Part shown: positions 1 through 30,593 of the stretch, one piece after another
Numbering within the stretch: position 1 is the first letter of the stretch
Layout: each line of letters begins with the position of its first letter
DNA from: a bacterium
GTDB lineage: Bacteria; Patescibacteriota; Minisyncoccia; Phycocordibacterales; Zambryskibacteraceae
Direction: 5' to 3'
NCBI GenBank assembly: GCA_030674415.1
Contig: JAUSGP010000005.1
Coordinates: 1 to 32,190, forward strand
Length of the DNA stretch: 32,190 nt
Notes under the pieces: generated by a model
The model's input: only the letters and a program-made list of their open reading frames with translations
What the model was told of the DNA's origin: nothing
Database searches by the model: none
Position numbers and translations under genes: made by a program

Positions 1-148
1 CCTCCTTGGACTGGAGTTCCAGCCTCTGGATATCCAGCTCCATCGATCCTTTCTTGCCGAGAGAAATGATCAGGCGCAGCAAATAGCCGAAGCCGATACC
101 GGCAGATGCGGCAAGTAATGCGAAAAGTAGCGCTAATTTTAGAGACAT
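1..148 (-). CDS. rny: Ribonuclease Y, N-terminal fragment (runs off the window start)
   Basis: Manual translation from ATG at 148: MSLKLALLFALLAASAGIGFGYLLRLIISLGKKGSMELDIQRLELQSKE. An N-terminal TM anchor followed by a coiled-coil start resembles RNase Y; only 49 codons are visible. Confidence 0.65.
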   Translation of the reverse strand, partial: MSLKLALLFALLAASAGIGFGYLLRLIISLGKKGSMELDIQRLELQSKE

Positions 149-268
149 GACACTATGGCTAGGTTCTAGCGACTAGGTGCTAGGGAGTTCAACCGTGACC
201 GAGTTCGGGAGGAAACTACAAACGTTTCTAATTAATTTTTGAATTGGAACCCCCTTACAATACCAAGA

Positions 269-844
269 TTAGAGAATCTTGTCTATGATGCCGTATTTTT
301 TGGCTTCTTCAGAACCCATGGAGTAATCCCTATCAACATCTTTTTCGATGCGAGAGAGGGGTTGGCCGGTGTTTTGAGAGAGGATTCTATTGGTGATTTC
401 TCGCGCCTTCAAGATACGCTTAGCCGCAATTTCAATGTCGGTCGCTTGACCTTCGGCTCCGCCCAAAGGCTGATGGATTAAAATTTCCGAGTTGGGCAGC
501 GCAAAACGCTTGCCTTTCTTGCCAGCAGAGAGAATAACGGCACCCATCGAAGCGGCGATACCCACGCACACCGTGGAAACGTCGGGCTTAATGTTATTCA
601 TGGTATCGACGATAGCTAGGCCAGATGTAATAACGCCACCGGGGGAATTAACATAGAGAGTGATGTCTTTCTTTGGATCTTCCGACTGAAGGAATAGGAG
701 TTGGGCGATAATGGTATTAGCGACACCGTCATCGATCGGTCCACCGAGGAAAATGATGCGTTCGCGCAAGAGGCGAGAGTAGATATCATAAGCCCGCTCA
801 CCAAACTGGCTCTTCTCTATAACGGTTGGGATAAGATAACTCAT
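269..844 (-). CDS. clpP: ATP-dependent Clp protease proteolytic subunit
   Basis: [30 protein letters not shown] (catalytic Ser) and IHQPLGG (catalytic His) motifs. Confidence 0.98.
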
Positions 845-883
845 GCGAAGTAGAGTAGCTCAAAGTTCTGATATAATCAAGTT

Positions 884-1624
884 ATGTTTGAAAAATACCT
901 CAAAGACATAGGCTTGAGTGATAAAGAAGCTGCCGTCTATTTAGCACTTTTATCTTTTGATAAAGCTCTCGTAACTGAAATAGCCGACAAGGCGAATATC
1001 AAGCGGCCTACTACTTATGTAATTCTTGAAAGTCTAGCCAAGAAAGGTCTTGTTAGTGAAGCCAATATTGGCAAGAAAACTTTTTACATTGCCGAGCCAC
1101 CTGAAAAGTTGGGGCTATTTGTCGAGAGACAAATTCATTTACTGGAGGAAAACAAAAAGAGTCTGGACATTATTGTTCCTCAACTTAAAGGAATTCAGAG
1201 GGAACAGGGAGAAAAACCAGTTGTTCAATTTTTTGAAGGTAAAGAAGGGGTAATAAGTTCTAGCCATAACATTTTCTCAAAAAAGATCAACGATGAACCT
1301 GTATATATAGTCTACTCAAAAGATACGGTTATGGACATGTTTTCAGAAAAGGAGGCGAAAGAGATGCGCGAACTGCGTATCTCTAGAGGAATCAAGTCAA
1401 AAGCAATTTACATCTCCAAAGAGGGGGAGAAACCTTCCGATGAAACAGGAGACAGAATAAAAATAGATGAAAACAAATATCCTATAAAAAGTGACATTAC
1501 CATCTATGGTGATCAGGTGAGAGTGGCAGTATTTGGGAAAAGGCTATCAGGTATTTTCGTAAAGAATCAAGAATTAGCAGACACTTTAAAAAGTCTCATT
1601 AAATATATTTTTGATCATAAATAA
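884..1624 (+). CDS. TrmB-family transcriptional regulator (wHTH plus C-terminal effector domain)
   Basis: GLSDKEAAVYLALL...IKRPTTYVILESLAKKGLV wHTH, then P-x-V-x-FFEGKEG. TGnTATAAT at 869-877 lies 6 nt before the ATG (leaderless). Confidence 0.88.
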   Translation: MFEKYLKDIGLSDKEAAVYLALLSFDKALVTEIADKANIKRPTTYVILESLAKKGLVSEANIGKKTFYIAEPPEKLGLFVERQIHLLEENKKSLDIIVPQLKGIQREQGEKPVVQFFEGKEGVISSSHNIFSKKINDEPVYIVYSKDTVMDMFSEKEAKEMRELRISRGIKSKAIYISKEGEKPSDETGDRIKIDENKYPIKSDITIYGDQVRVAVFGKRLSGIFVKNQELADTLKSLIKYIFDHK

Positions 1625-1627
1625 GAA

Positions 1628-1663
1628 GTGCCGTGGCAGAGAAGTGAATCTCTACCACGGCAC
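1628..1663. terminator. Strong hairpin between convergent transcripts
   Basis: gtgccgtggcagaga-agtgaa-tctctaccacggcac, directly after the TrmB-like stop codon. Confidence 0.7.
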
Positions 1664-1845
1664 AGGTCGGATCAGGCTGTAAGGGAGGGAGTTATCCTAC
1701 CCGCAACCTCTGAACATAAGCGTCATGCACTTCTTTCGTTCTGGCGATGGCTGATGCCCCCGCCTGGCTTGTGAAGAGAATCTGACTCTTGCTTCGATCC
1801 TACGTCCTACACTGGTTGGCGGCCGGACGCACTCCGCCTCGAGTT

Positions 1846-1857
1846 CTAGTCGTTCAC
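1846..1857 (-). other. SD-led minigene GTG-AAC-GAC-TAG
   Basis: Minus strand reads ggaggataaagaa GTG AAC GAC TAG. Confidence 0.4.
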
Positions 1858-1940
1858 TTCTTTATCCTCCACGATCTGTGACTAGAGATAAACTGGAGGC
1901 CTCACAGGGGCGTTGACAACACCCCTGCTCCCCAGCCGCC

Positions 1941-1952
1941 CTAGTCGTGCAT
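1941..1952 (-). other. SD-led minigene ATG-CAC-GAC-TAG
   Basis: Minus strand reads aaggagggttct ATG CAC GAC TAG, about 40 nt downstream of the predicted start site of the 2000-2028 promoter. Confidence 0.45.
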
Positions 1953-1999
1953 AGAACCCTCCTTTTCGCCGGTAACACACCGGGTACTCGCTAGCAGGT

Positions 2000-2028
2000 A
2001 GTATATACCCACTAGTTTTAAATGTCAA
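2000..2028 (-). promoter_or_regulatory. sigma70-type promoter (leftward)
   Basis: TTGACA-17 nt-TATACT on the minus strand. Confidence 0.8.
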
Positions 2029-2165
2029 GTTAGAATAACAAAATTAGTTAGTTTAAGTGTCAATTTTTATCTAGTTTAGTCAGACTCAATTAAATTCTAT
2101 ATTGTACAAAATGGCTATATTTCTAGCTATTTTAAATATTGTATAAGATGAAATGTCAAAACTGC

Positions 2166-2194
2166 TTGACAAAATTACTCTTTAGGTATATACT
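2166..2194 (+). promoter_or_regulatory. sigma70-type promoter driving the array
   Basis: TTGACA (2166-2171), 17 nt spacer, TATACT (2189-2194), with an AT-rich upstream region. Confidence 0.85.
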
Positions 2195-2200
2195 CTCTTT

Positions 2201-2775
2201 GTACCTTGAAATCAGCACTGGTTAGCGACGGCAACCGTCTAGAAAATTATCACGGACCCGCAGTCAGACTGGCTTCAAAAGTACGGTTTCTATCCTGCGG
2301 AGGAACTACGTTCCTCCGCTCCAGAGGCTCAAAAGCCTGTGGGGCGGGGGTGGGTAAGGTGGCCTTAATACCGCATAGGGAGTCTTCCCCTTCAGCAAGG
2401 GAAGTATGCGGAACCAGACGCGAGCACAGACTCGCGGAGGGTAAACCAAGATGGGACGAGTTTTGTGCCTGAAGCCCCGTGAAGCTGCACGGTGTGCTAC
2501 GTCCCAGCCCGAACCCACTCCCCGCGATGTTCTTTTACAAAAAGTGGCTAACACCACTAGAGGACTGGAGGCAGAAGCCACCAAGATCCTCGCTCGGGCA
2601 GGTTTCAAGCCCGATGGCCAACGCAAGTCGATTCGCCGGGAAAGTGTGAGAGCAATCTCCACTCCCTGCGGCGGCAAGCCTGGTTATCGGAGGCGATAAC
2701 CGCCGGGTGCGTCATCTTCGGCCAAGGCACCGAAGTTGCTCCAAAATCCAGGAGTGTAAAAGCATGGGTAAGAAT
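2201..2775 (+). ncRNA. Long structured leader / candidate ncRNA
   Basis: No convincing ORF. Many stems, e.g. ccgcag/ctgcgg, ggaggaac/gttcctcc, ccgcata/tatgcgg, cgcgag/ctcgcg. Long-range pairing of 2344-2355 with 2513-2525 is followed by GTTCTTT at 2529. Confidence 0.55.
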
Positions 2776-2863
2776 GGGTGAGCGGTAAAATATCGCTCGC
2801 CCTCCCATCAAAGCTTTCAAACTTTTGAAAATTTTGATGGGAAATGATTCCCAAATGTTCTTT
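2776..2863 (+). repeat. Array element R1 (hairpin + long palindrome + overlapping hairpin + GTTCTTT)
   Basis: gggtgagcg..cgctcgccc / tcccatcaaa..tttgatggga / gggaa..ttccc / gttcttt. Confidence 0.9.
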
Positions 2864-2875
2864 GGAGATAAAAAG

Positions 2876-3067
2876 ATGCTGAAAAAGATCGGTTTGTCTG
2901 TCCTGTCGGCGTTTTTCGCTGGCGGAGCAGTTCTCTGGTTCTGGGTTGCCTATACGCAATCCAATCCAGAGATGGCGAGGGCGGCTTTCATGATCGCTCT
3001 CGGCCCCACCACGGCCGCAATCCTCTTTGCCCACAAGGCGAGATGGATCAACAAACCCAATCGTTGA
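2876..3067 (+). CDS. Small two-TM membrane protein (array ORF)
   Basis: SD ggag then ATG 2876 directly after R1; two hydrophobic segments. Confidence 0.75.
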   Translation: MLKKIGLSVLSAFFAGGAVLWFWVAYTQSNPEMARAAFMIALGPTTAAILFAHKARWINKPNR

Positions 3068-3090
3068 TGATTGGGTTCCCACCAAAACAT

Positions 3091-3299
3091 GTCCAAGTCG
3101 GTGCAGCGGCTCGAGGACAACAACACTTCATTTAGGGACCTGCGAAAAGCACTGTAAGTGCTACACGGGCCCAGAAAGCTTGAAGTGTACGGTCTCAAAA
3201 GATCGAGATCACTGGGTTCGAATACGGGTGGCTTAGTGCTCTTCCGAAGGAGGTGGCCACAGCCCGTTATTCCATAGAACCTGGACTGCAACGTTCTTT
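3091..3299 (+). ncRNA. Pseudoknot module copy A
   Basis: Hairpin gtccaagtcg-GTGCAG-cggctcgaggac; complementary CTGCA at 3286, then GTTCTTT at 3293. Confidence 0.65.
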
Positions 3300-3303
3300 A
3301 AAA

Positions 3304-3381
3304 GCCGAACTTCGGTTCGGCTTCCATCAGAGTTCTGAAAACTTTCAGAGTTGTGATGGGGAATGTTCCCCGCTGTTCTTT
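3304..3381 (+). repeat. Array element R2
   Basis: gccgaac-ttcg-gttcggc / ttccatca..tgatgggg / ggggaa..ttcccc / gttcttt. Confidence 0.9.
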
Positions 3382-3393
3382 TCAGGAGATTAT

Positions 3394-3714
3394 ATGCCCA
3401 ATACGTTTGCCGAACTGGTCGTCCGGATCAACAATTCGGACAACGGGACTCTGTTCCAGCAGATCTGCGCAATGTTCGCGCAGGTCAGCACGATGGACGC
3501 TAACAGCGTTATCGTGTGCTGGCAGGCTCTCGACATGGTGAGGAGTCTGGACTCCCGCCACGGCTGCACCATTGCAGTCGACAAGCTCCAGCGCGCCTTG
3601 ATTGCCAGGATGCAAGTCCTGAGCAATCAAGAGTTTCCCCACGCCGTCCTCTACAACAGGATGACGCTGCGGGAAAAATTCAGATCAGTAATCGGTCCCG
3701 GGAGAGGGCTGTGA
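3394..3714 (+). CDS. Hypothetical protein (array ORF)
   Basis: SD aggag then ATG 3394 after R2 (MPNTFAELVV...); 106 aa, no recognised family. Confidence 0.75.
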   Translation: MPNTFAELVVRINNSDNGTLFQQICAMFAQVSTMDANSVIVCWQALDMVRSLDSRHGCTIAVDKLQRALIARMQVLSNQEFPHAVLYNRMTLREKFRSVIGPGRGL

Positions 3715-3723
3715 TCTGGGCGC

Positions 3724-3829
3724 CGTCAGTCTCATTAGGTAACTGACGTTAAAGGGAGTTAAGCTGCCCGTCCGTCGTGTAGGACAAAGTGCTGATGACC
3801 AAGCGTCTGCCGGAGCGTCATCCCGGTGC
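3724..3829 (+). ncRNA. Repeated structured module (TTAA..GTTAAGCTG..GTGCTRATGA) plus CGT-loop hairpin, copy 1
   Basis: Homologous to 6218-6323 with compensatory stem changes (cgtcag/ctgacg vs cgtgag/ctcacg; gtcc/ggac vs gcct/aggc). Confidence 0.6.
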
Positions 3830-3900
3830 TGATTCGCAAGAATCGGCTTTCTATCAGAGAACTGAAAAATCAGTCTTCTGACGGGAAGCTGAAACTTCCC
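3828..3900 (+). repeat. Array element R3 (not directly followed by GTTCTTT)
   Basis: gctgattc-gcaa-gaatcggc / tttctatcaga..tctgacgggaa / gggaag..cttccc. Confidence 0.75.
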
Positions 3901-3910
3901 AAAACCAGAG

Positions 3911-4125
3911 GTCCAAGCCGGTGCAGCGGCTCAAGGACTGAGAGAGTTCAAGTTCACCTTTTAAATCCCAACTCTCTGGACGCTCAGAATCTGCTTTTGG
4001 ACTCGTGGAGCAATGCTCGCGAAATCCTAGCAGGAGCGCAAGGTGAATGGTGAACGTAAGTTCATCACCGAGGGCGGCGTGCCAAGCATGACTTGTCACT
4101 CTGCTCCGGACTGCACACGTTCTTT
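3911..4125 (+). ncRNA. Pseudoknot module copy B
   Basis: gtccaagccg-GTGCAG-cggctcaaggac; CTGCAC at 4111; GTTCTTT at 4119. Confidence 0.65.
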
Positions 4126-4140
4126 CTATAGGAGGTGAGT

Positions 4141-4146
4141 ATGTAG
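4141..4146 (+). other. Start-stop minigene ATG-TAG behind a perfect SD
   Basis: aggaggtgagt ATG TAG, followed by the hairpin gtgccggc..gccggcac. Confidence 0.45.
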
Positions 4147-4194
4147 ACGCATACGTGTGCCGGCAGGTTGAGAGCGAGCCGGCACTGTCATTCA

Positions 4195-4275
4195 GCCGAA
4201 CTTCGGTTCGGCTTCCATCAAAGTTTTTAAACTCTTGAAAATTTTGATGGGACAATTCCGTCCCGAAAGTTCTTT
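4195..4275 (+). repeat. Array element R4
   Basis: gccgaac-ttcg-gttcggc / ttccatcaaa..tttgatggga / gggac..gtccc / gttcttt. Confidence 0.9.
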
Positions 4276-4287
4276 GAGGAGAGTGCT

Positions 4288-4662
4288 ATGCAGAATATCA
4301 TCGTTGGCGTGTCTATCCCGGACAACTACCAGATCGGCTCCAAAACCGAAGGTCGGCGGATGGCGGTGCACAGTTGGGATCTCACGAAGAGTGAGAGACT
4401 GACCACCGCCACCTACGGCAGCCGGCAGCACTCAACAACTTGGTTCGAGGACTGCGAAGTTCTCGACGCCGAGGGGGAGCTACCCGAAGCCCTGCACATT
4501 CTCGTCCGCTGTGGGCGTGAGTGGAATGGGTCGATCGGCGGGTCGTCGTGGTTCGCCAGTGAAGCTTTTGTCTCACGAGAACGTGCTGAAGAGTACGTCG
4601 CCAAGTGGGAGTCGGAGCTCAGCTGGTACTGGATCGTCACAACAAGGAGGTGTATCGAGTGA
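4288..4662 (+). CDS. Hypothetical protein (array ORF)
   Basis: SD gaggag then ATG after R4; 124 aa, Trp-rich C-terminus. Confidence 0.8.
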   Translation: MQNIIVGVSIPDNYQIGSKTEGRRMAVHSWDLTKSERLTTATYGSRQHSTTWFEDCEVLDAEGELPEALHILVRCGREWNGSIGGSSWFASEAFVSRERAEEYVAKWESELSWYWIVTTRRCIE

Positions 4663-4693
4663 GTATAGCGTCTGCCGGAGCGTAATCCCGGTA

Positions 4694-4742
4694 CTGTTCA
4701 GAGATGCGTATCTCTGCTGATGAGCTCAAAAGAGCGAAACAG
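4694..4742 (+). ncRNA. Hammerhead ribozyme, type III
   Basis: CUG-UU / stem I cagagat-gcgt-atctctg / CUGAUGA / stem II gctc-aaaa-gagc / GAAA / CAG. Complete canonical core; predicted cut after 4698 (GUU triplet). Confidence 0.85.
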
Positions 4743-4761
4743 AAATTCTTTGAAATTTGGG

Positions 4762-4802
4762 TCCCCATTAGATAATTCAATTTTTGAATTATCTAATGGG
4801 GA
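4762..4802. repeat. Perfect 19-bp inverted repeat (isolated long-palindrome variant)
   Basis: tccccattagataattcaa-ttt-ttgaattatctaatgggga. Confidence 0.85.
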
Positions 4803-4906
4803 GATGTCACTACGCGAGGACAGGGAACAACAGAGCTAGCGTGCTAACGCCACGTGAATACTGCCCGCTGAAACTCCGTGATGCATGACTCTTCCCAAGT
4901 AACACG

Positions 4907-5084
4907 GTCCAGGCCGGTGCAGCGGCCAGAGGACTAGTGGATTCGCTCGCCTGGATTGGTGGGCGGATGGCGACGAGTTCTCGTCGCAACCAGGTATAAG
5001 ACCGGGGGTTCAAATCGCTTCTGAAGGAGGTGCCCCGACCGGTGATAGAGTACCTGGACTGCACACGTTTTACTTTTGTTCTTT
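4907..5084 (+). ncRNA. Pseudoknot module copy C
   Basis: gtccaggccg-GTGCAG-cggccagaggac; CTGCAC at 5059; GTTCTTT at 5078. Confidence 0.65.
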
Positions 5085-5103
5085 CAAAAAGGAGATTAGA
5101 GAG

Positions 5104-5355
5104 ATGATGATCGGCCTTTCGAACTCGGAAGCCAGGGCTCGTTTGGTTGAGGGTGTGGTGTCCGACGATCGTCGCGACATCATCGGGCCGAACGGCCTGA
5201 AGTACAAGGTCAAGAACTACCTTGTACCCACCCTCATCCCAGGAGAGAAGGTGCGGTTCATTCCGCATCAGCGCTCCTGGAAGAGTCAGACCTATGCCGG
5301 CGAGGTCTGGCTGCAAAACGAGCGCCATCGCCGGCGCAAACCCGATCCTTCGTGA
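5104..5355 (+). CDS. Small hypothetical protein, possibly OB-fold/cold-shock-like (array ORF)
   Basis: SD aaggag after GTTCTTT 5078. The V.G.V...L.PGEKVRF pattern loosely recalls small OB folds. Confidence 0.65.
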   Translation: MMIGLSNSEARARLVEGVVSDDRRDIIGPNGLKYKVKNYLVPTLIPGEKVRFIPHQRSWKSQTYAGEVWLQNERHRRRKPDPS

Positions 5356-5422
5356 TCGGGTTCCCATCAAAGTTTTCAAATCATTGAAGATTTTGATGGG
5401 AAATGATTCCCAAATGTTCTTT
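5340..5422 (+). repeat. Array element R5
   Basis: acccgatc..gatcgggt (overlaps the upstream stop codon) / tcccatcaaa..tttgatggga / gggaa..ttccc / gttcttt. The 3' part is nearly identical to R1. Confidence 0.9.
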
Positions 5423-5440
5423 ACAACAGGAGAAGAGATA

Positions 5441-6205
5441 ATGAGAATTCTGGTAATTGACGACAACCCTCTTCATCATGCAAGTGCTCGGCAGACGCTC
5501 GGTGGCCACGAGGTCACGATCGTCGGCACGTACGACGAGGCGCACAAGCTCCTTGAGGAGCCGAGAGCGCACTGGAAAGCCGTGAATGATGAACTGGAAC
5601 GCCGCGGCTTCAAGAACCCATACGCGCCGAACATGACCGCGGAAGAGCGGGCGGCGGCGCGGGCCGAAGAGAAGCGCATTGAGCAGGAGCTCTGTCCGCC
5701 TCCGCCGTTCGAAGCCGTTCTCTCTGACTTGCTCATGCCAGCAAGCAGGATGACCATGGGTCCGGAAGGAGAGAAGTACATCGGGCAGGAAATGCCGGTG
5801 GGCTTCGCTCTCTCGCTCATGGCGGCTCTTCACGCGAAGTACGTGGCGGTCGTGACGGCAACCAACCATCACAACCATCCGGCCTCCGCCATGCTCGACG
5901 CCTTTGAGTCGAGATGCACCCACGAGCACGATTCGGTAGGCAAGCCCCCTCGTTTTGTCATCAACGGAGCGCGTGTCGGTTTCTACCACGCGCCGATGAC
6001 ATTCGTGGAGGGTACCACCTGTCCGGATTGCGGCGGCAGCGGCGACAAGGAGGTCTGCTACTGCGTCGAGCGCAACGCCGGCGTGGCCAAGCCTGATTGC
6101 GACACCTGCAAAGGTGCCGGCCGTCAGTGTTGGACTTGCCGCAATACCGGCAAGCAGTGGGGCAAGGACTGGGGCAAGGTCCTAACTCATATCACTGCTG
6201 GATAG
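5441..6205 (+). CDS. Receiver-like domain protein with C-terminal CxxCxGxG zinc-finger repeats
   Basis: MRILVIDD start and LSDLLMP phospho-acceptor-like motif; CPDCGGSG, CDTCKGAG, CWTCRNTG. SD aggag then ATG 5441. Confidence 0.8.
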   Translation: MRILVIDDNPLHHASARQTLGGHEVTIVGTYDEAHKLLEEPRAHWKAVNDELERRGFKNPYAPNMTAEERAAARAEEKRIEQELCPPPPFEAVLSDLLMPASRMTMGPEGEKYIGQEMPVGFALSLMAALHAKYVAVVTATNHHNHPASAMLDAFESRCTHEHDSVGKPPRFVINGARVGFYHAPMTFVEGTTCPDCGGSGDKEVCYCVERNAGVAKPDCDTCKGAGRQCWTCRNTGKQWGKDWGKVLTHITAG

Positions 6206-6217
6206 CGGTGATAGCCC

Positions 6218-6323
6218 CGTGAGGCTTATCAGATAACTCACGTTAATGAGCGTTAAGCTGCTCGCCTGTTGTGTAAGGCAAAGTGCTAATGATCTGACGT
6301 CCGCCGGAGCGTCATCCCGGTAC
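6218..6323 (+). ncRNA. Repeated structured module plus CGT-loop hairpin, copy 2
   Basis: Homologous to 3724-3829; followed by GTTCTTT at 6325. Confidence 0.6.
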
Positions 6324-6333
6324 TGTTCTTTCC

Positions 6334-6412
6334 GCCGAACCTCGGTTCGGCTCCTACCAGAGTTCTGAAAAACTTCAGAATTGTGGTGGGACAATCCCGT
6401 CCCCTGTTCTTT
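6334..6412 (+). repeat. Array element R6
   Basis: gccgaac-ctcg-gttcggc / tcctacca..tggtggga / gggac..gtccc / gttcttt. Confidence 0.9.
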
Positions 6413-6421
6413 GAGGAAAAA

Positions 6422-6559
6422 ATGAAGAAGAAAATTCTTCGACTGCCTCGCGCACCACTACCGCGCCAGACTGGTGGATACCACAGTCCGGACAAGGGTC
6501 GCGGTGCCTACAACCGCCAGCATGAAAAACTGGCCACCAAAAAGGAGACGCAGGAATGA
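6422..6559 (+). CDS. 45-aa basic peptide resembling alternative ribosome-rescue factor ArfA
   Basis: Manual translation: MKKKILRLPRAPLPRQTGGYHSPDKGRGAYNRQHEKLATKKETQE. SD gagg; PLxRQ...KGxGxYxR pattern. Below the ORF-track size cut-off. Confidence 0.6.
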   Translation: MKKKILRLPRAPLPRQTGGYHSPDKGRGAYNRQHEKLATKKETQE

Positions 6560-6768
6560 TGATGAAAACGATCCCGCAGCAGGTTCAGCGTCCTCGCGTT
6601 CACCAGCCACTGTTTCTGAAACAGAAGCTCGTCTGCTCGATGTGCAAGGTTAGGGAAGTGATCCCGCCGATTGCCGTCTGCTCGCCCTGCTTACAAATCC
6701 TCAACCAGAGGCGCAAGGAAGCAGAGAAGAGTGGGCGTCCGTGGTGGCGGCGATGGTTCTGGGGCTAA
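6556..6768 (+). CDS. Small zinc-binding protein (CxxC...CxxC) with PWWRRWF tail
   Basis: ATGA overlap with the upstream peptide; SD aaggag; CSMC and CSPC. Confidence 0.7.
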   Translation: MMMKTIPQQVQRPRVHQPLFLKQKLVCSMCKVREVIPPIAVCSPCLQILNQRRKEAEKSGRPWWRRWFWG

Positions 6769-6802
6769 ATCACCCAGCGTCTTCCGGAGCGTCATCCCGG
6801 TA

Positions 6803-6851
6803 CTGTTCAGAGATGCGTATCTCTGCTGACGAAGTCGAAAGACAGAAACAG
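6803..6851 (+). ncRNA. Hammerhead ribozyme, type III (variant stem II)
   Basis: Stem III/I identical to the 4694 copy; CUGACGA; a-gtc-gaaa-gac-a (A.A mismatch at the base of stem II); GAAA-CAG. Confidence 0.7.
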
Positions 6852-6870
6852 ATGTTCTTTAAAAAAAATC

Positions 6871-7130
6871 TGCCTGCTTCCCAGAAAGTTCCTGAAATAT
6901 ATTCGGTACTTTTCTGGGGCGCAGGTATGGACAGATACCTTGGACGCCCGGGAAGCCTCCCACCCAATAACCACCTTAAGTCTGACGAGACAAGAGGAGA
7001 ATGGTTATTTGGTTAAAAATCGACCTTGACTTCGCGCTGGTCGATTAGGCCGCTCTTTGCAGGGATCGGAATAGGCATTCCTAAAGGTCTCGGATGATGC
7101 AACATTTGAGACCACTGTCCACCGTTCTTT
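6871..7130 (+). ncRNA. Long palindrome plus multi-stem non-coding domain
   Basis: tgcctgc..cccagaaa/tttctggg..gcaggta at 6871-6927. tggacag (6928) pairs with ctgtcca (7115), enclosing several hairpins, then GTTCTTT at 7124. Confidence 0.5.
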
Positions 7131-7132
7131 TT

Positions 7133-7214
7133 GCCGAACTCATGTTCGGCTTCCGTAAAAGTTTTTAAATCATTGAAAATTTTTACGGGACAATTTGGTC
7201 CCAACCTGTTCATT
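7133..7214 (+). repeat. Array element R7
   Basis: gccgaac-tcat-gttcggc / ttccgtaaaa..ttttacggga / gggac..gtccc / gttcatt variant. Confidence 0.88.
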
Positions 7215-7239
7215 TCATCATCAGAAGGATGGCTTGGCT

Positions 7240-7599
7240 ATGGAAAAGAAGTTTGTTCTCTCTATTGTCGAATCCGAGAATACGAAGTATGGGTATAACC
7301 CATGTGAGTGCTCGGATTGCACCCACTGGAGTATCAACTTCGAGCCCTCGGCAGACGAGGCGGCGGTGAAGGAGCTTTGCGATTTCGTCAATCGAGTATC
7401 TCACTCGAAAGGCAAAATCAAGGAGCTTGGGGAGAAGGAGTGCAAATTCCTGTCGGCCCTTTTGGGAATCAACATCACAGGAGGTCTTCCTTATGTTGAA
7501 GCTAGATACTGGGAATACCAGGAACCTAGACCCGAACCGCCACCATCATCTGTTTCCGAGGCATTCCGGAGGTTGCACAATCTTAAGCGGGGATCCTAG
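7240..7599 (+). CDS. Hypothetical protein with CxCxxC motif (array ORF)
   Basis: ATG 7240 after R7; PCECSDC. Confidence 0.75.
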   Translation: MEKKFVLSIVESENTKYGYNPCECSDCTHWSINFEPSADEAAVKELCDFVNRVSHSKGKIKELGEKECKFLSALLGINITGGLPYVEARYWEYQEPRPEPPPSSVSEAFRRLHNLKRGS

Positions 7600-7635
7600 T
7601 GAATCCATAAGCTAGGGCGAGACCGCAGTGCATAT

Positions 7636-7725
7636 GGGTGAGCGGCAAAATATCGCTCGCCCTCCCATCAGAGTTTTTCAAAAATTGGAAAGTTCTGATG
7701 GGACAATAGTGTCCCTGTGTTCTTT
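7636..7725 (+). repeat. Array element R8
   Basis: First hairpin nearly identical to R1 / tcccatcaga..tctgatggga / gggaca..tgtccc / gttcttt. Confidence 0.9.
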
Positions 7726-7746
7726 CACAGCCTAAGGAGTGCGTCC

Positions 7747-8199
7747 ATGAAAAGCGTTGAAAAAGAGTTACCAGAAGTCTACGGGATCATCTCCCGCGAC
7801 CACGCCCAAAACGGCAAGAACAGCGCTGTCTCCAAGTACGTGAACGGCGGGTGTACCTCGGATTCAGCAGAGCCAGTACTGGCACTCGTGATGCCCTATT
7901 TCGAGAGCTACGAGATGTCCAGGCTCCTCGCTCTGTATGATGCGGTCTGGAGCGCTCATCAAGTCGGTCTGTTGCACCACATCAATTTCAGCAACAGGAA
8001 GATCAGAGAGGAGGCGCGCAAGTACGGCATCTCTGATGATCGGGTGTGGCCAGCGAAGCTCGTGGACATCGAGGAAATCAGCGTGGGCGACCCGGAGGAT
8101 ATCGGGTCTGCCATTGCGGAGATCCTCAGTGTCCTCATGAAAATGAGAGACATGGAGAGCTTCCTCGAGACTCGCGCCGATCAACTTCTGAGTTCTTAG
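7747..8199 (+). CDS. Hypothetical protein (array ORF)
   Basis: SD taaggag then ATG 7747 (MKSVEKELPE...); 150 aa. Confidence 0.8.
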   Translation: MKSVEKELPEVYGIISRDHAQNGKNSAVSKYVNGGCTSDSAEPVLALVMPYFESYEMSRLLALYDAVWSAHQVGLLHHINFSNRKIREEARKYGISDDRVWPAKLVDIEEISVGDPEDIGSAIAEILSVLMKMRDMESFLETRADQLLSS

Positions 8200-8236
8200 G
8201 AATAAAATACGTCCACTGGCGCGTAAGCCCAGTATC

Positions 8237-8329
8237 GTCCGAGGAAGTCATATATCCTCGGACTTCCTTCAGAGAATTTAACTTCGGTTGAATGTTCTGA
8301 AGGAACGAATGGTTCGTTCCATGTTCTTT
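8237..8329 (+). repeat. Array element R9
   Basis: gtccgagga..tcctcggac / ttccttcaga..tctgaaggaa / ggaacgaa..ttcgttcc / gttcttt. Confidence 0.88.
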
Positions 8330-8343
8330 GAGGAGATAAAAAG

Positions 8344-8733
8344 ATGGAAACAGAAAAGGATTTGTTCGAGCTTGAAATGGAGGAGAAGCGGAAGCAGGAA
8401 CCTCCGATCTCATCCGATAACCCCGCACCCTTCAAACAGCCGTTTCTGGTCATTACGTTCAAAGATCAGAAAATCCACGGCAACGTTGCCGACGGCTGGC
8501 ACGTCGAAGTCGACGGTCAGATTCAGAAGTACTTCGAAGAATTCACGGAGCGCACTCTCGAATGGGCTCCGCCGTTCAATTCAATGCACCGCGCGACGCC
8601 GCTTCTGAGGAGCATCGTCGAGTACTTCGCGAGCCGTGGCATGGAGGTCGCGAGTGTGGCCACGTACGCCGGATCGGCTGGCCCATCACATGTACTGAGG
8701 AACGGGGCGTTCTTCAAGCGCATGAGGTTCTAA
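8344..8733 (+). CDS. Hypothetical protein (array ORF)
   Basis: SD gaggag then ATG; 129 aa. Confidence 0.8.
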   Translation: METEKDLFELEMEEKRKQEPPISSDNPAPFKQPFLVITFKDQKIHGNVADGWHVEVDGQIQKYFEEFTERTLEWAPPFNSMHRATPLLRSIVEYFASRGMEVASVATYAGSAGPSHVLRNGAFFKRMRF

Positions 8734-8754
8734 CGTTCATTAAAAGGAGGTAAT

Positions 8755-8853
8755 ATGCCACCGGATTCAAAAGGGATAGCTGAGCGGCCCGATTCAAGAC
8801 TCAGCCCTAGATCTTCGAGGTTTAGAGAGGTAACGGTACGTGCCTTCACGTGA
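8755..8853 (+). CDS. 32-aa peptide (array ORF)
   Basis: gttcatt, then SD aaggagg, then ATG: MPPDSKGIAERPDSRLSPRSSRFREVTVRAFT. Confidence 0.45.
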   Translation: MPPDSKGIAERPDSRLSPRSSRFREVTVRAFT

Positions 8854-8864
8854 TCCGACCTAAT

Positions 8865-8959
8865 GGGGAAGAACCAAAACTTGGCCAACCTTCCCCTTTC
8901 ATCTAAGGTTTTAGAAAATTGAAATTTTAGATGAGAGAATAGTTCTCTCAATGTTCTTT
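8865..8959 (+). repeat. Array element R10 (most divergent copy)
   Basis: ggggaag..cttcccc / ctttcatctaa..ttagatgagag / tgagagaa..ttctctca / gttcttt. Confidence 0.8.
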
Positions 8960-8974
8960 GAGAAAAGAGGTGTC

Positions 8975-9298
8975 ATGTATCGAAGGATCGAACCTCCAGG
9001 CAGCTCGGCTATGACTCTTGGTTGCGAGGCAATGTGTCAGTCTGGTCTTCCGGATCCCCGCGGTTGGGTTCAAGGCACTCGACCAGTCGAATATTTCTTC
9101 ACCGAATACGGCTGGCGCAAAAGCGGTCATGCAGTTCTGAGCGAAATTCGCTCAAAGGGTGTTATCGCCAAAGTGATCGCAGTGAAGGAAAGGGACCCTC
9201 GTATCCATGTTCGCTACCAGGACAAGTGGCAAGTGATTGTCACCTGGGGATGTCGAAAGGAACATAACTCCAAACGAAGGGTATCAACCCAAAACTAG
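8975..9298 (+). CDS. Hypothetical protein (array ORF)
   Basis: SD gaggtg then ATG 8975 (MYRRIEPP...FFTEYGWRK...). Confidence 0.75.
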   Translation: MYRRIEPPGSSAMTLGCEAMCQSGLPDPRGWVQGTRPVEYFFTEYGWRKSGHAVLSEIRSKGVIAKVIAVKERDPRIHVRYQDKWQVIVTWGCRKEHNSKRRVSTQN

Positions 9299-9307
9299 GA
9301 GTGAGAA

Positions 9308-9508
9308 ATGTTCTTCGATAACCATGAAATTTTGGTCCAGGGTTCCACGCTTGTAGGTATTCAGAATGTAACCTTGCTTTGCAAGATTCACGACGAGCTC
9401 GAGCTCCTAATCATCGACACCCAAGCAATAGTGCCCGGCAAGATCGTTCGTTTAAGATGTCCGTATTGCAGAATGCTTGGCTACCTGATCACTAGCAAAG
9501 CTGAGTAA
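9308..9508 (+). CDS. Small putative zinc-ribbon protein
   Basis: SD aggag; CKIH...CPYC. Confidence 0.6.
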   Translation: MFFDNHEILVQGSTLVGIQNVTLLCKIHDELELLIIDTQAIVPGKIVRLRCPYCRMLGYLITSKAE

Positions 9509-9518
9509 TAACTTGATC

Positions 9519-9598
9519 GGGCAAACTATGTTTGCCCTTCCGTCAGAGAGCTGAAAGATTTCAGAATTCTGACGGGACAATTCCGTCCCGTGTTCTTT
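9519..9598 (+). repeat. Array element R11
   Basis: gggcaaac-tat-gtttgccc / ttccgtcaga..tctgacggga / gggac..gtccc / gttcttt. Confidence 0.9.
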
Positions 9599-9619
9599 GA
9601 GTGAAGAGGAAGTGAAAGA

Positions 9620-9883
9620 ATGGAACAGCATCTGTCGGTTGCTCAAGCCGCAAGCGAAGTAATCCAACACGCCTGCGAGAATTTCTCTACCACGAGCCGA
9701 CAAGACGAACTTTGTGGAGAGATCCTCGCCGCTCTCACGATTGCGGCCAGGGTAGACATCCAGGCAAGGGAGCGCCACGCCTTTGTCTCTAGATGGCAAT
9801 CGCTTCTTCCGGAAGTCCTTCGTGCCAACGGAAGAGCGGTTTTTGCAGTCATCGTGGAGCAGAAGCTAGAAGAACTCCTTTAA
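9620..9883 (+). CDS. Hypothetical protein (array ORF)
   Basis: SD gagga then ATG after R11; 87 aa, predicted helical. Confidence 0.75.
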   Translation: MEQHLSVAQAASEVIQHACENFSTTSRQDELCGEILAALTIAARVDIQARERHAFVSRWQSLLPEVLRANGRAVFAVIVEQKLEELL

Positions 9884-9912
9884 ACAAACGTTCATCGGCA
9901 CGTAAGCCCGGT

Positions 9913-10001
9913 TCCGAGGAAACCATAAATCCTCGGGTTTCCTTAAAAGATTTTCTAACAGGAAATTTTTTAAGGGGACAATTCCGTCCCAACTGTTCTT
10001 T
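9913..10001 (+). repeat. Array element R12
   Basis: tccgagga..tcctcggg (like R9) / tttccttaaaa..ttttaagggga / gggac..gtccc / gttcttt. Confidence 0.88.
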
Positions 10002-10013
10002 GAGGAAAATACG

Positions 10014-10358
10014 ATGAGAATGATTCTGTGTCTTTGTTTTCTGTCCGTTGCTCTCGTCGCGGCGCAAGAACCGGCGCAACAACCGGTATTCCCCGCACTG
10101 ACCGAGCCGGCTTACGTCGGCGTCGGCCAGGTTGATCTCAAGAAGATTTCCTTGAGGTCGGCACGCGACTTGGGCATCATCCGGGCGCAGGGAGCGCTCG
10201 CACGCGCAATCTGCGACCCGAACAACGAGAAGGAGCGCGTCCGCGCTTTCATCGTTGGCAAGCGTCATACCGACGAACTTCGAGTCGGTGACGTGCTCTG
10301 GGTCCGTATCTGGATCCGGAAGGACGAGGTCGAGGTGGACAAAGTCTGCCTCGACTGA
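10014..10358 (+). CDS. Secreted hypothetical protein (signal peptide)
   Basis: MRMILCLCFLSVALVAA-QEP signal peptide; SD gagga. Confidence 0.75.
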   Translation: MRMILCLCFLSVALVAAQEPAQQPVFPALTEPAYVGVGQVDLKKISLRSARDLGIIRAQGALARAICDPNNEKERVRAFIVGKRHTDELRVGDVLWVRIWIRKDEVEVDKVCLD

Positions 10359-10388
10359 AACGGAAACGAATTCATTTTTGGAGGGTGT

Positions 10389-10676
10389 ATGCAACAGAGT
10401 GTGCTCGGCGAACTCATCACGCTCATTTTGGTCATCGTGATCATGCTCGGAGGCATGACAATGATCGTGGGCGGCCCGTCTCTTACGGGACGGTGGTACC
10501 GGTGGATCTTCCGAACTGTAGTACTCGCTCCCCTCGGTTGGGGGCTGCGCCAGATCGGCAGAGGCGTCGAGTGGCTCCTACGATGGAGCGCCCGACAACT
10601 CGGACGACTCCTACTCTATCTCGCTCGACTCACGGGCAGAGGTATCCACTACGCCTGGGTCAGGTTAACCACCTGA
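10389..10676 (+). CDS. Small membrane protein
   Basis: SD gaggg; N-terminal TM segment, then an Arg/Trp amphipathic tail. Confidence 0.7.
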   Translation: MQQSVLGELITLILVIVIMLGGMTMIVGGPSLTGRWYRWIFRTVVLAPLGWGLRQIGRGVEWLLRWSARQLGRLLLYLARLTGRGIHYAWVRLTT

Positions 10677-10738
10677 CCCAGTTTTGTCATATTCTAAGCC
10701 ATATTTTGATAAATTAGAGGTAAAAATAGACAATATAC

Positions 10739-10767
10739 TTGACAATATTTCAAGTATATGATAGGAT
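10739..10767 (+). promoter_or_regulatory. sigma70-type promoter
   Basis: TTGACA-17 nt-TAGGAT with extended TG, 8 nt before ATG 10776. Confidence 0.6.
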
Positions 10768-10775
10768 AGTAATAG

Positions 10776-10976
10776 ATGCAGGCGTTTATCGTCGGCACCA
10801 GGACGGTCGTCAGCAACTTCGTTGACGGCACCCGAATCGTGGAGCAGAGGTTTCGGGAAACCGAAGCGGATGCTCTTGCTCACGCTCTGTGGCTCGAAAG
10901 CCACGGCAAGCGTGAGGAAGCTGTGGAATATCTGGACGACTACCTCCAGAGACACCCAGCCCCGACTCGCCACTAA
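10776..10976 (+). CDS. Small hypothetical protein
   Basis: 66-aa ORF directly behind its own promoter (probably leaderless). Confidence 0.6.
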   Translation: MQAFIVGTRTVVSNFVDGTRIVEQRFRETEADALAHALWLESHGKREEAVEYLDDYLQRHPAPTRH

Positions 10977-11047
10977 GGTGGGGGTGCAATGGGGATGTCA
11001 TCGCAGTCCCTGTAAATAAAATGCGTGCCCTTAGCCGGGTCACAAGC

Positions 11048-11110
11048 AAGGCCATTCTTAACCGAACGGCCTTTTTGTTTTACAACAAACCCGCCAATTG
11101 GCGGGTTTGT
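11048..11110. terminator. Two terminator hairpins between convergent units
   Basis: aaggcc..ggccttttt (11048-11076) and acaaacccgcc-aatt-ggcgggtttgt (11085-11110). Confidence 0.75.
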
Positions 11111-11134
11111 GTTTCTTAATTAACTAGAAGGATT

Positions 11135-11392
11135 TTAAGAAGCGTTCATTTCGGCATCGAGATTTTCGAGCTCGGTAGAGTTGAGATCAGCTTCGATGTC
11201 AGCGGTAGTATCAGATTCGCTCTGGATGTTGATGGTATCGAGTTCATTGTTTAGTGCCTGACTCTCACTACGCTGTCCCCAGAAGTAGAGTGCTCCGAAG
11301 ATCACAACAGCGAGAATGACGATAGCGCCGATGATGGGGCCGGCGGAGGAGCCAGACTGAACTGCTGCATTGACGTTGCTTTGTTCGTCCAT
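11135..11392 (-). CDS. Single-TM hypothetical protein
   Basis: GPIIGAIVILAVVIFGALYFWG TM segment with an acidic tail. Confidence 0.8.
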   Translation of the reverse strand: MDEQSNVNAAVQSGSSAGPIIGAIVILAVVIFGALYFWGQRSESQALNNELDTINIQSESDTTADIEADLNSTELENLDAEMNAS

Positions 11393-11415
11393 GTTATTAG
11401 ATGGCTAAATAATAA

Positions 11416-12123
11416 TTAATCGTCGTCTTCCACTTCAACAATTGAGGTGGCATTTGCTTCGACCCTAGTCTTGCCGAGAGCACCGAGGGAGCGAAGTGCC
11501 TTCATGAGACTGGTGTGAGCCTCACGAATATGGCCCTTAACTTCAGCAGCAATATTGCGTACTCGTTCGAAGTTTTCCTGCGCCTTGTCTCCAGAGAGAT
11601 CAACAGAGGCAAAAAGGGCAATGCTCGTCTTGGCTGCAGAGAGATGAACTTTTGCCTCCGCTACGAAACCTTCGGCTTCGGCTGTATTCTTACCCTCGGC
11701 CTTAACCTTCTCTATTCTAGACTCTATCCTGGTAAGAATTTTCTCCAGTCGTTCAACGGTAGCCATGAGCAATCGAGCAGTGTGTTCGGCCTTCTTCTTA
11801 GCTAGACCTCTCTGCATCTCCACGCGCTTAGCTGTTGAGGAAGCTTGGCGCACTTCGCGGTTCTCTTTCATTTCTTCTTTACGAGTTTCGATATTGGCCT
11901 TGATTTCGACTCGACGCTCGGTACTCGATGCCTTACGATTCTCGGCCTCAATCTTCCTCTCTTCTACTCTAGCCTTAACATCAACACCAACCCTTTCGGC
12001 TGGTACAGGAACAGGACGACCACCGAGGTTCTTGTCTCGATAATCAGTATCCAAGGCGAAAGCCGGAGTGGCCAAGGCAACAAGTGCCAAGGCGAGGGTA
12101 GCAGTAATAAATTTTTGTTTCAT
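11416..12123 (-). CDS. Secreted coiled-coil protein
   Basis: Signal peptide (...TPAFA) followed by long charged helices. Confidence 0.8.
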   Translation of the reverse strand: MKQKFITATLALALVALATPAFALDTDYRDKNLGGRPVPVPAERVGVDVKARVEERKIEAENRKASSTERRVEIKANIETRKEEMKENREVRQASSTAKRVEMQRGLAKKKAEHTARLLMATVERLEKILTRIESRIEKVKAEGKNTAEAEGFVAEAKVHLSAAKTSIALFASVDLSGDKAQENFERVRNIAAEVKGHIREAHTSLMKALRSLGALGKTRVEANATSIVEVEDDD

Positions 12124-29704: not shown

Positions 29705-30085
29705 ATGAATGAACTCGACATTCAGATAAAAAAGATTGAAAAATTCCAAGACTTAGATGCTTGGAAAGAGGGTCACAAGCTTGTCATAGAGGTATACAAA
29801 ATTTCTCGTCTATTCCCCAAAGAAGAATCCTTCGGCCTTACTAGCCAGATCCGGCGCGCGGTAGTCTCAGTTACTTCTAATATTGCAGAGGGATTTGGCA
29901 GGCAATCATATAAAGACAAGAATAACTTTTACCAAATGGCTTTTGGCTCTATAATTGAAGTGCGGAATCAATTGCTTATTTCAAGAGATGTTGGTTACAT
30001 AAATCAGTCAAATTTTGAGACTCTTGATAACCAGGCAATAAAAGTTGAGAAAATCTGCAGAGGACTAATTAAAAAAATCTCGTGA
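29705..30085 (+). CDS. Four helix bundle protein (23S rRNA IVP family)
   Basis: FQDLDAW...FPKEESFGLTSQIRRAVVSVTSNIAEG. Confidence 0.93.
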   Translation: MNELDIQIKKIEKFQDLDAWKEGHKLVIEVYKISRLFPKEESFGLTSQIRRAVVSVTSNIAEGFGRQSYKDKNNFYQMAFGSIIEVRNQLLISRDVGYINQSNFETLDNQAIKVEKICRGLIKKIS

Positions 30086-30149: not shown

Positions 30150-30593
30150 ATGAGATTCCAAGTCCCACAATTTATCGAAGTAGAAGACAAGATTTTCGGC
30201 CCTTTTACCTTCAAGCAGTTCATCTATCTGGCCGGCGGGGTCGGTGCGGCGGTCGTGCTCTACACTCTTCTACCTAAATTCCTGGCCATTTTACTTGCCT
30301 TGCCTATACTCGTCTTCGCCGCCGCGCTCACTTTCTATAAGCCAAACGATAAACCATTTATCCACTTAGTCGAAGCCTTTTTCAATTACACTCTCACTAA
30401 TAAGCTTTATATTTGGAAAAAGGAAGATAAACCAATAAACAATAGACAAGAAACAATGAACAATAAGCCCTTGGAGCAGGTTTACGTCCCCAAGCTTTCT
30501 GAATCTAAGTTAAAAGATCTGTCGTGGAGTCTGGATATCAAAGAGAATCGGAATCCTGTAACCCAGGATTCCGATTCTCTGACCAACAACTAA
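30150..30593 (+). CDS. PrgI family protein
   Basis: FQVPQFIEVEDKIFGPFTFKQF plus two TM segments. Confidence 0.85.
   Translation: MRFQVPQFIEVEDKIFGPFTFKQFIYLAGGVGAAVVLYTLLPKFLAILLALPILVFAAALTFYKPNDKPFIHLVEAFFNYTLTNKLYIWKKEDKPINNRQETMNNKPLEQVYVPKLSESKLKDLSWSLDIKENRNPVTQDSDSLTNN

Follow-up and report, generated by a model that had tools for sequence, protein, structure and literature searches.

A conserved, uncatalogued structured RNA module with a predicted loop-to-tail pseudoknot in an orphan-gene operon of a Patescibacteria bacterium

In the pistol ribozyme, the P1 loop of about 6 nucleotides (nt) is fully paired in a pseudoknot close to a G-U cleavage site, and in the early mRNA of phage T7 hairpins serve for processing by RNase III. 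According to reviews, bacterial ribozymes cluster and may process polycistronic mRNAs, and new classes have been found by clustering (PMC6765202). In organisms possessing RNase J, mRNA is stabilised by stable 5' structures and Shine-Dalgarno-like sequences, and a sequence of this kind, the stabilising Shine-Dalgarno sequence (STAB-SD), blocks RNase J1 through 30S binding (PMC4113751). The pseudoknotted fold of a viral exoribonuclease-resistant RNA (xrRNA) blocks bacterial RNase J1 in vitro (PMC5760640). The element described here, called the module, occurs three times in contig JAUSGP010000005.1; the window analysed is this entire contig of 32,190 bases, which belongs to a genome assembly of 0.485 Mb (36 contigs, rated 80% complete). 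Judged from its sequence and that of its homologues, the module is a real, conserved and uncatalogued structured RNA family without detectable relative. What appears to be new is the RNA family.

The 20-nt consensus of the 5' hairpin (GTCCARGYCGGTGCAGCGGC, with up to 3 mismatches) matched exactly three sites of the window, at 3091, 3911 and 4907, all on the + strand, with 0.01 matches expected by chance and three matches reached in 0/100 shuffles; no further copy was detected in the rest of the 0.485-Mb genome. Homologues were searched by relaxed hairpin pattern scans and with a covariance model, R1 (14 copies, 203 positions, 32 base pairs). An earlier note, made from the letters of the window, had claimed three copies at these positions, a distant ACTGCA end facing each hairpin and four paired inner helices of variable sequence, and all of this was recovered. 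The three co-oriented modules extend over 3091-3299, 3911-4125 and 4907-5084, and ACTGCA begins 194, 199 and 151 nt past the respective hairpin start; the common pattern of the three ends is ...YYGG-A-CUGCA(C)-AC-GUU, with a GTTCTTT behind it. The inner helices cacttca/tgaagtg (3124-3130 / 3181-3187), ttcacctt/aaggtgaa (3953-3960 / 4040-4047), gcgacgag/ctcgtcgc (4970-4977 / 4980-4987) and ccaggta/tacctgg (4990-4996 / 5051-5057) are all present and predicted to be paired by folding. The parts of the three copies, designated as paired elements P1 to P4 and tail, are as follows.

3091-3299, + strand: module copy 1 (type I), 144.2 bits with model R1; its 3' end reads CCTGG-ACTGCAACGTTCTTT and stops at 3299
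3091-3118, + strand: P1 of copy 1, with outer stem GUCC/GGAC, inner stem AGUCG/CGGCU and loop GUGCAG at 3101-3106
3124-3187, + strand: P2 of copy 1 in the predicted fold
3191-3210, + strand: P3 of copy 1 in the predicted fold
3212-3284, + strand: P4 of copy 1 in the predicted fold
3247-3255, + strand: AAGGAGGUG within P4 of copy 1
3285-3291, + strand: tail A-CUGCA-A of copy 1
3293-3299, + strand: GUUCUUU of copy 1
3911-4125, + strand: module copy 2 (variant P4, without the GGAGGU core), 119.4 bits with model R1; its 3' end reads TCCGG-ACTGCACACGTTCTTT and stops at 4125
3911-3938, + strand: P1 of copy 2, loop at 3921-3926
3953-4047, + strand: large P2 domain of copy 2
4049-4069, + strand: P3 of copy 2
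about 4068-4109, + strand: closing helix of copy 2
4110-4116, + strand: tail ACUGCAC of copy 2
4119-4125, + strand: GUUCUUU of copy 2
4803-4902, + strand: putative structured spacer, about 95 nt long (GGGGAGAUGUCAC...GACUCUUCCC), adjoining copy 3 on its 5' side, delimited by eye
4907-5084, + strand: module copy 3 (type I), 128.1 bits with model R1; its 3' end reads CCTGG-ACTGCACACGTTTTACTTTTGTTCTTT and stops at 5084
4907-4934, + strand: P1 of copy 3, loop at 4917-4922
4941-4968, + strand: P2 of copy 3
4970-4987, + strand: P3 of copy 3
4990-5057, + strand: P4 of copy 3
5024-5032, + strand: AAGGAGGUG inside P4 of copy 3
5058-5064, + strand: tail ACUGCAC of copy 3
5078-5084, + strand: GUUCUUU of copy 3

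Copies 1 to 3 have minimum free energies of -76.2, -82.9 and -77.3 kcal/mol; compared with dinucleotide shuffles, their z-scores are -2.96, -3.11 and -3.25. In the RNAfold predictions, the 6-nt loop of the 5' hairpin is open in 3/3 copies, and the tail stays unpaired in copies 1 and 3. Copy 3 is directly followed by a ribosome-binding site and the gene 5104-5355; spacer elements similar to the one preceding it were seen by eye before the copies of loci L048 and L061. Directly after copy 2, at 4130-4146 (+), stands a perfect AGGAGGUG, followed by 3 nt and an ATG-TAG start-stop mini open reading frame (ORF).

The relaxed hairpin pattern was found at 19 loci in GTDB genome contigs and at 30 in metagenome contigs, with 0 matches for two patterns in viral contigs. 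The full module was present in 8 genome loci and 14 metagenome loci among these matches. The others (11/19 and 16/30, respectively) contained the hairpin pattern only, mostly in coding DNA of Xanthobacter, Azorhizobium and others. Candidates L004, L006, L062, L088 and L089, as well as L098-L105 from a scan with a P4-core pattern, were discarded as chance or spurious matches, and L094 as a coding region. In total, 9 small Patescibacteria genomes and 14 metagenome loci yielded 19 distinct copies (final alignment A4: 20 matches, 19 distinct), and the records carrying homologous loci are labelled Zambryskibacteria, Minisyncoccia or Paceibacterota. A BLAST search with the region revealed island-like DNA in 9 of the 37 genus genomes. 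The searches with model R1 gave the following results.

Window's genus: match in 4/37 genomes (8 matches)
Window's order: match in 1/151 genomes, the own genome only (0/150 others)
Class sample: match in 3/151 genomes, namely the own genome, G271 (real) and G267 (spurious coding match)
Family of G271: match in 3/41 genomes
Order of G271: match in 3/105 genomes

Within the groups searched, the family is rare, patchy and confined to few Paceibacteria lineages.

The copies range from 90 to 245 nt and are built on a common plan. P1 has an outer 4-bp stem (G/C/A)UCC / GGA(C/G/U), a conserved A opposite NRA, and an inner 5-bp stem RGYCG/CGRCY that carries the loop GUGCAG. P2 is a hairpin of free sequence and size (10 to about 95 nt); it is joined through the junction J2/3, A[CU]G, to the small hairpin P3, often with a GNRA loop, and J3/4 counts about 2 nt. 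The closing helix of P4 has 7 bp and ends just before the tail, which consists of one A and then CUGCAC. A type I P4 core was recognised in 12/19 copies, copies 1 and 3 included (GCGAGC/GCUCGC, GGC/GCC, GGCUAAGU ... (A)AGGAGGUGGCCAAC, AAUGCCAAAG), and other P4 interiors in copy 2, G037a, G039, L044b, L097 and L093. L050 is a 90-nt minimal form made of P1, closing helix and tail only, and the distant L093 keeps the architecture without GUUCUUU or GGAGGU.

Among the 19 distinct rows, 89.0% of the cells are paired versus 77.0 ± 0.9% in shuffles, and changes on both sides affect 28/38 pairs versus 14.6 ± 2.1, pair counts that are inflated by the fitting of the alignment to the model structure and by the relatedness of the sequences. 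None of the five covariation measures was reached in any shuffle (0/500), and when the partners were slid by 1-3 columns the pairing fell to 26-39%. Double changes concern 7/7 pairs of P4a, 7/7 of P3, 5/6 of P4b, 4/5 of inner P1 and 2/4 of outer P1, the rows with a variant P4 being forced in P3 and P4. In four closely related copies, the two innermost P1 pairs are replaced by tandem A·G and G·A. On the sense strand, G·U cells outnumber A·C cells (35 vs 14 in an earlier alignment of 16 rows; 25 vs 6 for type I), an excess which fits an RNA made from the gene-sense strand.

The complementarity of the GUGCAG loop to CUGCAC, claimed in the earlier note, was found in every readable copy, and one compensatory variant was added. 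In L093 (27.8 bits, another order), the loop is GUGUAG and the tail CUACAC, so that the lone changed position remains paired (C-G to U-A); by a rough estimate, such a change would occur by coincidence about 1 time in 18. L044b and L097, which were found by the model alone, keep GUGCAG and CUGCAC though their P1 stems differ. The tail AUUGCAC of L050 gives a G·U at one end of the pseudoknot helix, and the CUGCAA of copy 1 a mismatch at the other end. A loop-to-tail pseudoknot is thus likely, its covariation being one event and not proof, and through this pairing of 6 nt with 6 nt the two ends of the module are likely tied together. P4a probably stacks on the pseudoknot, because its 3' strand continues through a single A into the pseudoknot strand.

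The core proposal of the earlier note, an unrecognised class of structured RNA, holds in view of the 19 distinct homologues with compensatory helix changes and of the absence of any Rfam match. The Rfam scan which it had called for was carried out, and no module was matched at the gathering score or under lax conditions: Rfam 15 gave 0 matches at the gathering score over the whole window, and the modules remained free of matches at E up to 10 (positions 1-12000, and 3050-5100 with laxer filters). Only tRNAs passed when the related loci were scanned. In the window, ARAGORN detected 0 tRNA or tmRNA genes, and a tRNA-like reading of GGTTCGAAT and GGTTCAAAT was rejected on the same result, these bases being helix strands. 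Downstream of GGAGGU(G), ATG or GTG codons at 12-15 nt lie in differing frames in different copies; a small conserved peptide within P4 and the tail was rejected for its start codons in differing frames. The tail and GTTCTTT were also considered as sigma-54-like or sigma-70-like promoters and dismissed by eye, canonical promoters being located elsewhere, and the sequence of P1 and P4 does not fit a kink-turn, an 11-nt tetraloop-receptor or a T-box. No account of the module was found among abstracts on hammerheads and the Candidate Phyla Radiation (CPR), on RAGATH motifs and self-cleaving RNAs, on structured RNA of Patescibacteria or on intergenic hammerhead ribozymes in polycistronic phage transcripts; the supplements of motif-discovery studies could hold one.

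The three modules are located in an operon of about 8.5 kb, a strain-variable island of orphan small genes. Its landmarks, with those of the hammerheads that it contains, are given below.

2166-2194, + strand: sigma-70-like promoter TTGACA-17-TATACT, 11/12 positions
4694-4742, + strand: complete type III hammerhead by strict descriptor, with stem I of 9 bp, stem II of 4 bp and stem III of 4 bp
about 6803-6851, + strand: hammerhead variant with a CUGACGA core and A·A at the base of stem II, read from the sequence
10655-10691, + strand (10655-10681 in the terminator scan): intrinsic terminator closing the island operon

Upstream of the island, 2166-2194 is the sole strong promoter match of the + strand, and the next promoter lies at 10739-10767; therefore the modules are probably within one long sense transcript, which would carry them in the sense direction as a polycistronic RNA. 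Between promoter and terminator stand about 16 co-oriented small genes, for which no Pfam match above the cut-off and no PHROGs match (0/16) were obtained. In genome G025, the terminator of the island operon directly follows a module. Gene content of the island differs among genomes of the same genus, and genes are common only patchily between genomes. The larger genes of the window are of the housekeeping type (NusA, inorganic pyrophosphatase, KsgA, UvrD, a ComM-like ATPase, an M23 peptidase), with two TrmB-like regulators in addition. Because of these genes and of the labels of the records with homologous loci, the window is considered as chromosome of an ultra-small Patescibacteria (CPR) bacterium of groundwater and not as phage; neither DNA nor protein of the phage records matched the window sequences.

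A TrmB-like regulator adjoins the island in 8 other loci too, and the regulator gene (884-1624, +) and the variable orphan-gene island (2200-10700) are always side by side. The island resembles an integron-like cassette array, and no integrase was noticed among the 21 large ORFs scanned. Its largest protein (5441-6205, +; 254 aa) has an N-terminus faintly like a response-regulator receiver domain (E 0.07) and a Cys-rich C-terminus with a CxxC cluster, without Pfam, PHROGs or phage match. The promoter is immediately followed by an ORF-poor operon leader of about 330 nt (about 2200-2535, +), whose 3' part is 87% identical to G025:C2 and which is similar to the leaders upstream of the L035 and L050 modules; this leader is probably another structured RNA. 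On the opposite strand, 1628-2028 (-) comprises a divergent sigma-70-like promoter (2028-2000, 11/12 positions) and a strong terminator (1663-1628), separated by about 335 nt devoid of any ORF of at least 60 aa on either strand; it is a candidate independent non-coding RNA gene, without Rfam match. Far from the island, two genes for four-helix-bundle proteins of the 23S-rRNA-IVP / Avd-like type (29705-30085 and 30612-30971, +) enclose a PrgI-family gene (30150-30593).

GTTCTTT had been listed in the earlier note behind the ACTGCA(C)ACGTT of each copy. It does follow each copy of the window, but it is not specific to modules and follows nearly every structured element of the island. The window contains 19 occurrences versus 6.8 ± 2.9 expected, 17 of them on the + strand between 2529 and 10001, and the other contigs contain 0-6 each. 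Each unit is closed by this motif, be it a long AU-rich hairpin with a small GC hairpin, a hammerhead, an element called type B or a module, and a ribosome-binding site or the next structured unit comes after it. Because L093 lacks GUUCUUU, the motif is regarded as part of the grammar of the island and not of the module; its candidate roles include those of U-tract, nuclease site, cassette junction and element of translation.

That hammerheads neighbour the modules, as also claimed earlier, was confirmed by the strict type III match and by the variant with the CUGACGA core. The hammerhead at 4694-4742 lies 165 nt upstream of copy 3, and the descriptor found 0 matches in 50 shuffles of the window. 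The only relevant weak Rfam match is Hammerhead_3 at 4698-4745 (24.5 bits versus a gathering score of 48.5). The strict descriptor gave 16 matches over the 19 sources examined with it, 1 in the window and 15 in related loci, the latter with covariation in stem I (L017, L018, L019, L023, L041, L048, L056 and L069 among them); all remain under the Rfam gathering score because their stem III has only 4-5 bp. The CUGANGA and GAAA cores, the three stems and the NUH cleavage site of type III hammerheads are present in these neighbours of the module.

Two other kinds of unit recur in the island. The conserved type B element (...GUUAAAGGGAGUUAAGCUGCCCGUCC...CCGGAGCGUCAUCCCGGUACU) occurs at 3717-3831 and 6214-6325 (+), with shorter 3' parts at about 4669-4700 and 6776-6800 (+). 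It shows 79-96% identity across genomes of the genus, and either GUUCUUU marks its end or a hammerhead cleavage site follows without a gap. Rfam gave no match for it; it is a candidate further RNA family and resembles pistol only loosely. The second is a three-part unit composed of a GC hairpin (GCCGAACUUCGGUUCGGC), a 13-16-bp AU-rich hairpin and a small GGGAC...GUCCC hairpin, seen on the + strand at 2800-2856, 3322-3372, 4215-4265, 5355-5412, 7660-7716, 8880-8950, 9530-9590 and 9940-9990. Insertions reaching about 90 nt can enlarge the small hairpin, and modules lie between this hairpin and GUUCUUU. The AU-rich hairpins could be RNase III substrates.

For the function, our tentative preference, held with less than even confidence, goes to an autonomous module of RNA processing or stability, in the form of a nuclease-resistant knot. 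It would act alone in cis on the RNA, irrespective of the following gene, as a punctuation element in an mRNA cut by hammerheads and probably by RNase III. The compact knot would resist nucleases and halt exonucleolytic decay in this RNase J-encoding genome, and would thereby define and stabilise the processed segment or survive as a discrete RNA; the internal Shine-Dalgarno-like GGAGGU(G) of 12/19 copies may in addition bind 30S, as STAB-SD does. The genome encodes both RNase J and RNase III, and RNase E/G and RNase Y were not found in it, at 80% completeness. Orthologous genes have a module leader in one genome and a plain hairpin leader in another, in both directions, and nothing but an intrinsic terminator comes after the module in 5/19 distinct copies. 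A hammerhead lies few bases upstream of the module in L017 and L018, and in L035 and L050 the module follows the operon leader. As the module is optional, variable in position, gene-independent and probably tied at its ends, a self-contained function at the RNA level is suggested rather than gene-specific sensing.

Several points speak against such a knot. A barrier needs only a simple hairpin, so that a more specific activity is indicated by the conserved P4 core and by the conserved bases of the junctions, A[CU]G joining P2 to P3 and AAAG preceding the 3' strand of P4a, and copies placed before a terminator would gain little as protectors of either end. The putative pseudoknot joins a loop to the 3' tail and does not form the ring around the 5' end of a three-way junction that is seen in xrRNAs. 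Most copies were found by a pattern requiring GUGCAG, which makes the invariance of the loop alone weak evidence, and the inflated pair counts and the single covariation event of the pseudoknot count on the same side. At the level of class, it is possible though doubtful that the module represents a new class of natural RNA with catalytic or special mechanical properties, either a self-cleaving ribozyme or the first bacterial counterpart of the xrRNAs. P1, the loop-tail pseudoknot and P4a would stack as the core in the ribozyme version, and CPR bacteria would use the module together with hammerheads to cut and stabilise pieces of the polycistronic orphan-gene transcript.

The main rival of the nuclease-resistant knot, a new class of self-cleaving ribozyme, is in our opinion unlikely; it stays of interest because complete hammerheads abound in these islands. 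It would cut the polycistronic transcript at or near one end of the module, for instance between the pseudoknot tail and GUUCUUU, with the P1-pseudoknot-P4a stack as core and P2, P3 and the tip of P4 as peripheral parts. The module occupies the same type of intergenic slot as true hammerheads, sometimes in tandem with them; its conserved unpaired bases and loop-tail pseudoknot recall pistol, and the 90-nt L050 has the size of a ribozyme. Bacterial self-cleavers are described in PMC6765202 as clustered, with new classes discovered in that way. However, no Rfam ribozyme model matches the modules, the GU after the tail is part of the GUUCUUU that also stands behind plain hairpins and hammerheads and is missing in L093, and the module is bigger and more variable than the known small self-cleavers. 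A released scaffold or trans-acting RNA, which would bind a protein or 30S via the P4 core (GGCUAAGU ... AAGGAGGUGGCCAAC), seems rather improbable: GGAGGU(G) is conserved in 12/19 copies whether paired or not, some copies are at operon ends and several occur per operon, yet the core is missing in 7/19 copies (copy 2 and L093 included), no partner protein co-occurs, the island genes being only patchily common between genomes, and the assembly contains no 16S gene to supply the anti-Shine-Dalgarno sequence.

The U-rich tails, such as GUUCUUUU and AUUCUUUUU, would suit a pseudoknot-dependent pause or terminator (attenuator) in which the P4a-pseudoknot stack, 2-3 nt before the U-rich tract, decides by its folding on read-through, and a simple scan often called the small hairpin with GUUCUUU terminator-like (25 vs 10.4 expected). 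This is very unlikely, since 17 such sites per operon would choke expression, the canonical terminators of the genome have their U-tract directly after the stem, and L093 has no U-tract. Still less probable is a mobile or recombinogenic repeat acting as DNA without RNA function, comparable to a miniature inverted-repeat transposable element (MITE), a repetitive extragenic palindrome (REP) or an attC-like cassette boundary. A patchy distribution (4/37 in the genus, 0/150 other genomes of the order, 3/105 in another order), the GTTCTTT present on both sides of several copies and the cassette-array aspect of the island at a fixed locus beside the TrmB-like gene are compatible with it. But the sole end-to-end inverted repeat is the 6-nt loop/tail, the inverse core AAAGAAC is absent from the + strand of the island, four helices are kept by compensatory changes with an excess of G·U on the sense strand, the orientation is always that of the genes, and the same slots hold hammerheads, which act as RNA. 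A metabolite-sensing riboswitch for the downstream gene, one of the functions named in the earlier note, is the least likely of all and extremely so, in spite of the complex conserved fold and the frequent position in a 5' untranslated region (copy 3, L017, L035, L056, L069, L096). Orphans unrelated to one another stand downstream, none with a Pfam or PHROGs match passing the cut-off, 5/19 copies have no downstream gene and others are followed by more hairpin units, and no alternative pairing with a ribosome-binding site or terminator is conserved; a gene-specific sensor is unlikely because the module is optional, shifts its place and is last before the terminator in those 5 copies.

Conserved junction bases and long-range pseudoknots in an RNA of complex fold usually mark a ribozyme, a riboswitch or the core of a ribonucleoprotein, and new classes are rare. 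Should the module self-cleave or block RNase J, a new RNA class would be added, together with a handle on mRNA processing in ultra-small bacteria without RNase E or RNase Y; should it be merely a stabilising leader, it would still document an unusual gene-cassette architecture punctuated by RNA. The several diverged copies per genome provide natural variants.

Compared with known systems, the module resembles xrRNAs of flaviviruses and plant viruses by a compact multi-helix fold closed by a long-range pseudoknot, in a genome encoding RNase J; the predicted helix topology differs, there is no similarity of sequence or model, and to our knowledge, no search aimed at it having been made, no bacterial xrRNA is known. 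With STAB-SD it may share a strong Shine-Dalgarno-like sequence without start codon at working distance (AAGGAGGUG at 3247 and 5024). In the module, this motif forms part of a conserved helix-loop core, in many copies pairs with CUCC or CUUCC, and is missing in 7/19 copies. Like the RNase III hairpins of T7, the island has structured elements that punctuate a polycistronic transcript of small genes, a likeness which fits its long AU-rich hairpins and not the pseudoknotted module. No Rfam match to the pistol, hatchet, twister-sister or RAGATH models was obtained. The module lacks the compact core of about 50 nt and the A-rich linker of pistol, is 3-4 times larger, with 120-190 nt and three extra hairpins between P1 and the pseudoknot partner, and shows no pistol-like P2/P3 arrangement; what it has in common with pistol is a hairpin whose 6-nt loop can pair entirely with a downstream strand, GUGCAG and CUGCAC being complementary in all readable cells. 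Like the RAGATH-type motifs (PMC6765202), the module stands beside hammerheads among small unknown genes. Its origin, a hammerhead-rich operon of the poorly known Patescibacteria, is the kind of setting that yielded pistol, hatchet and twister-sister.

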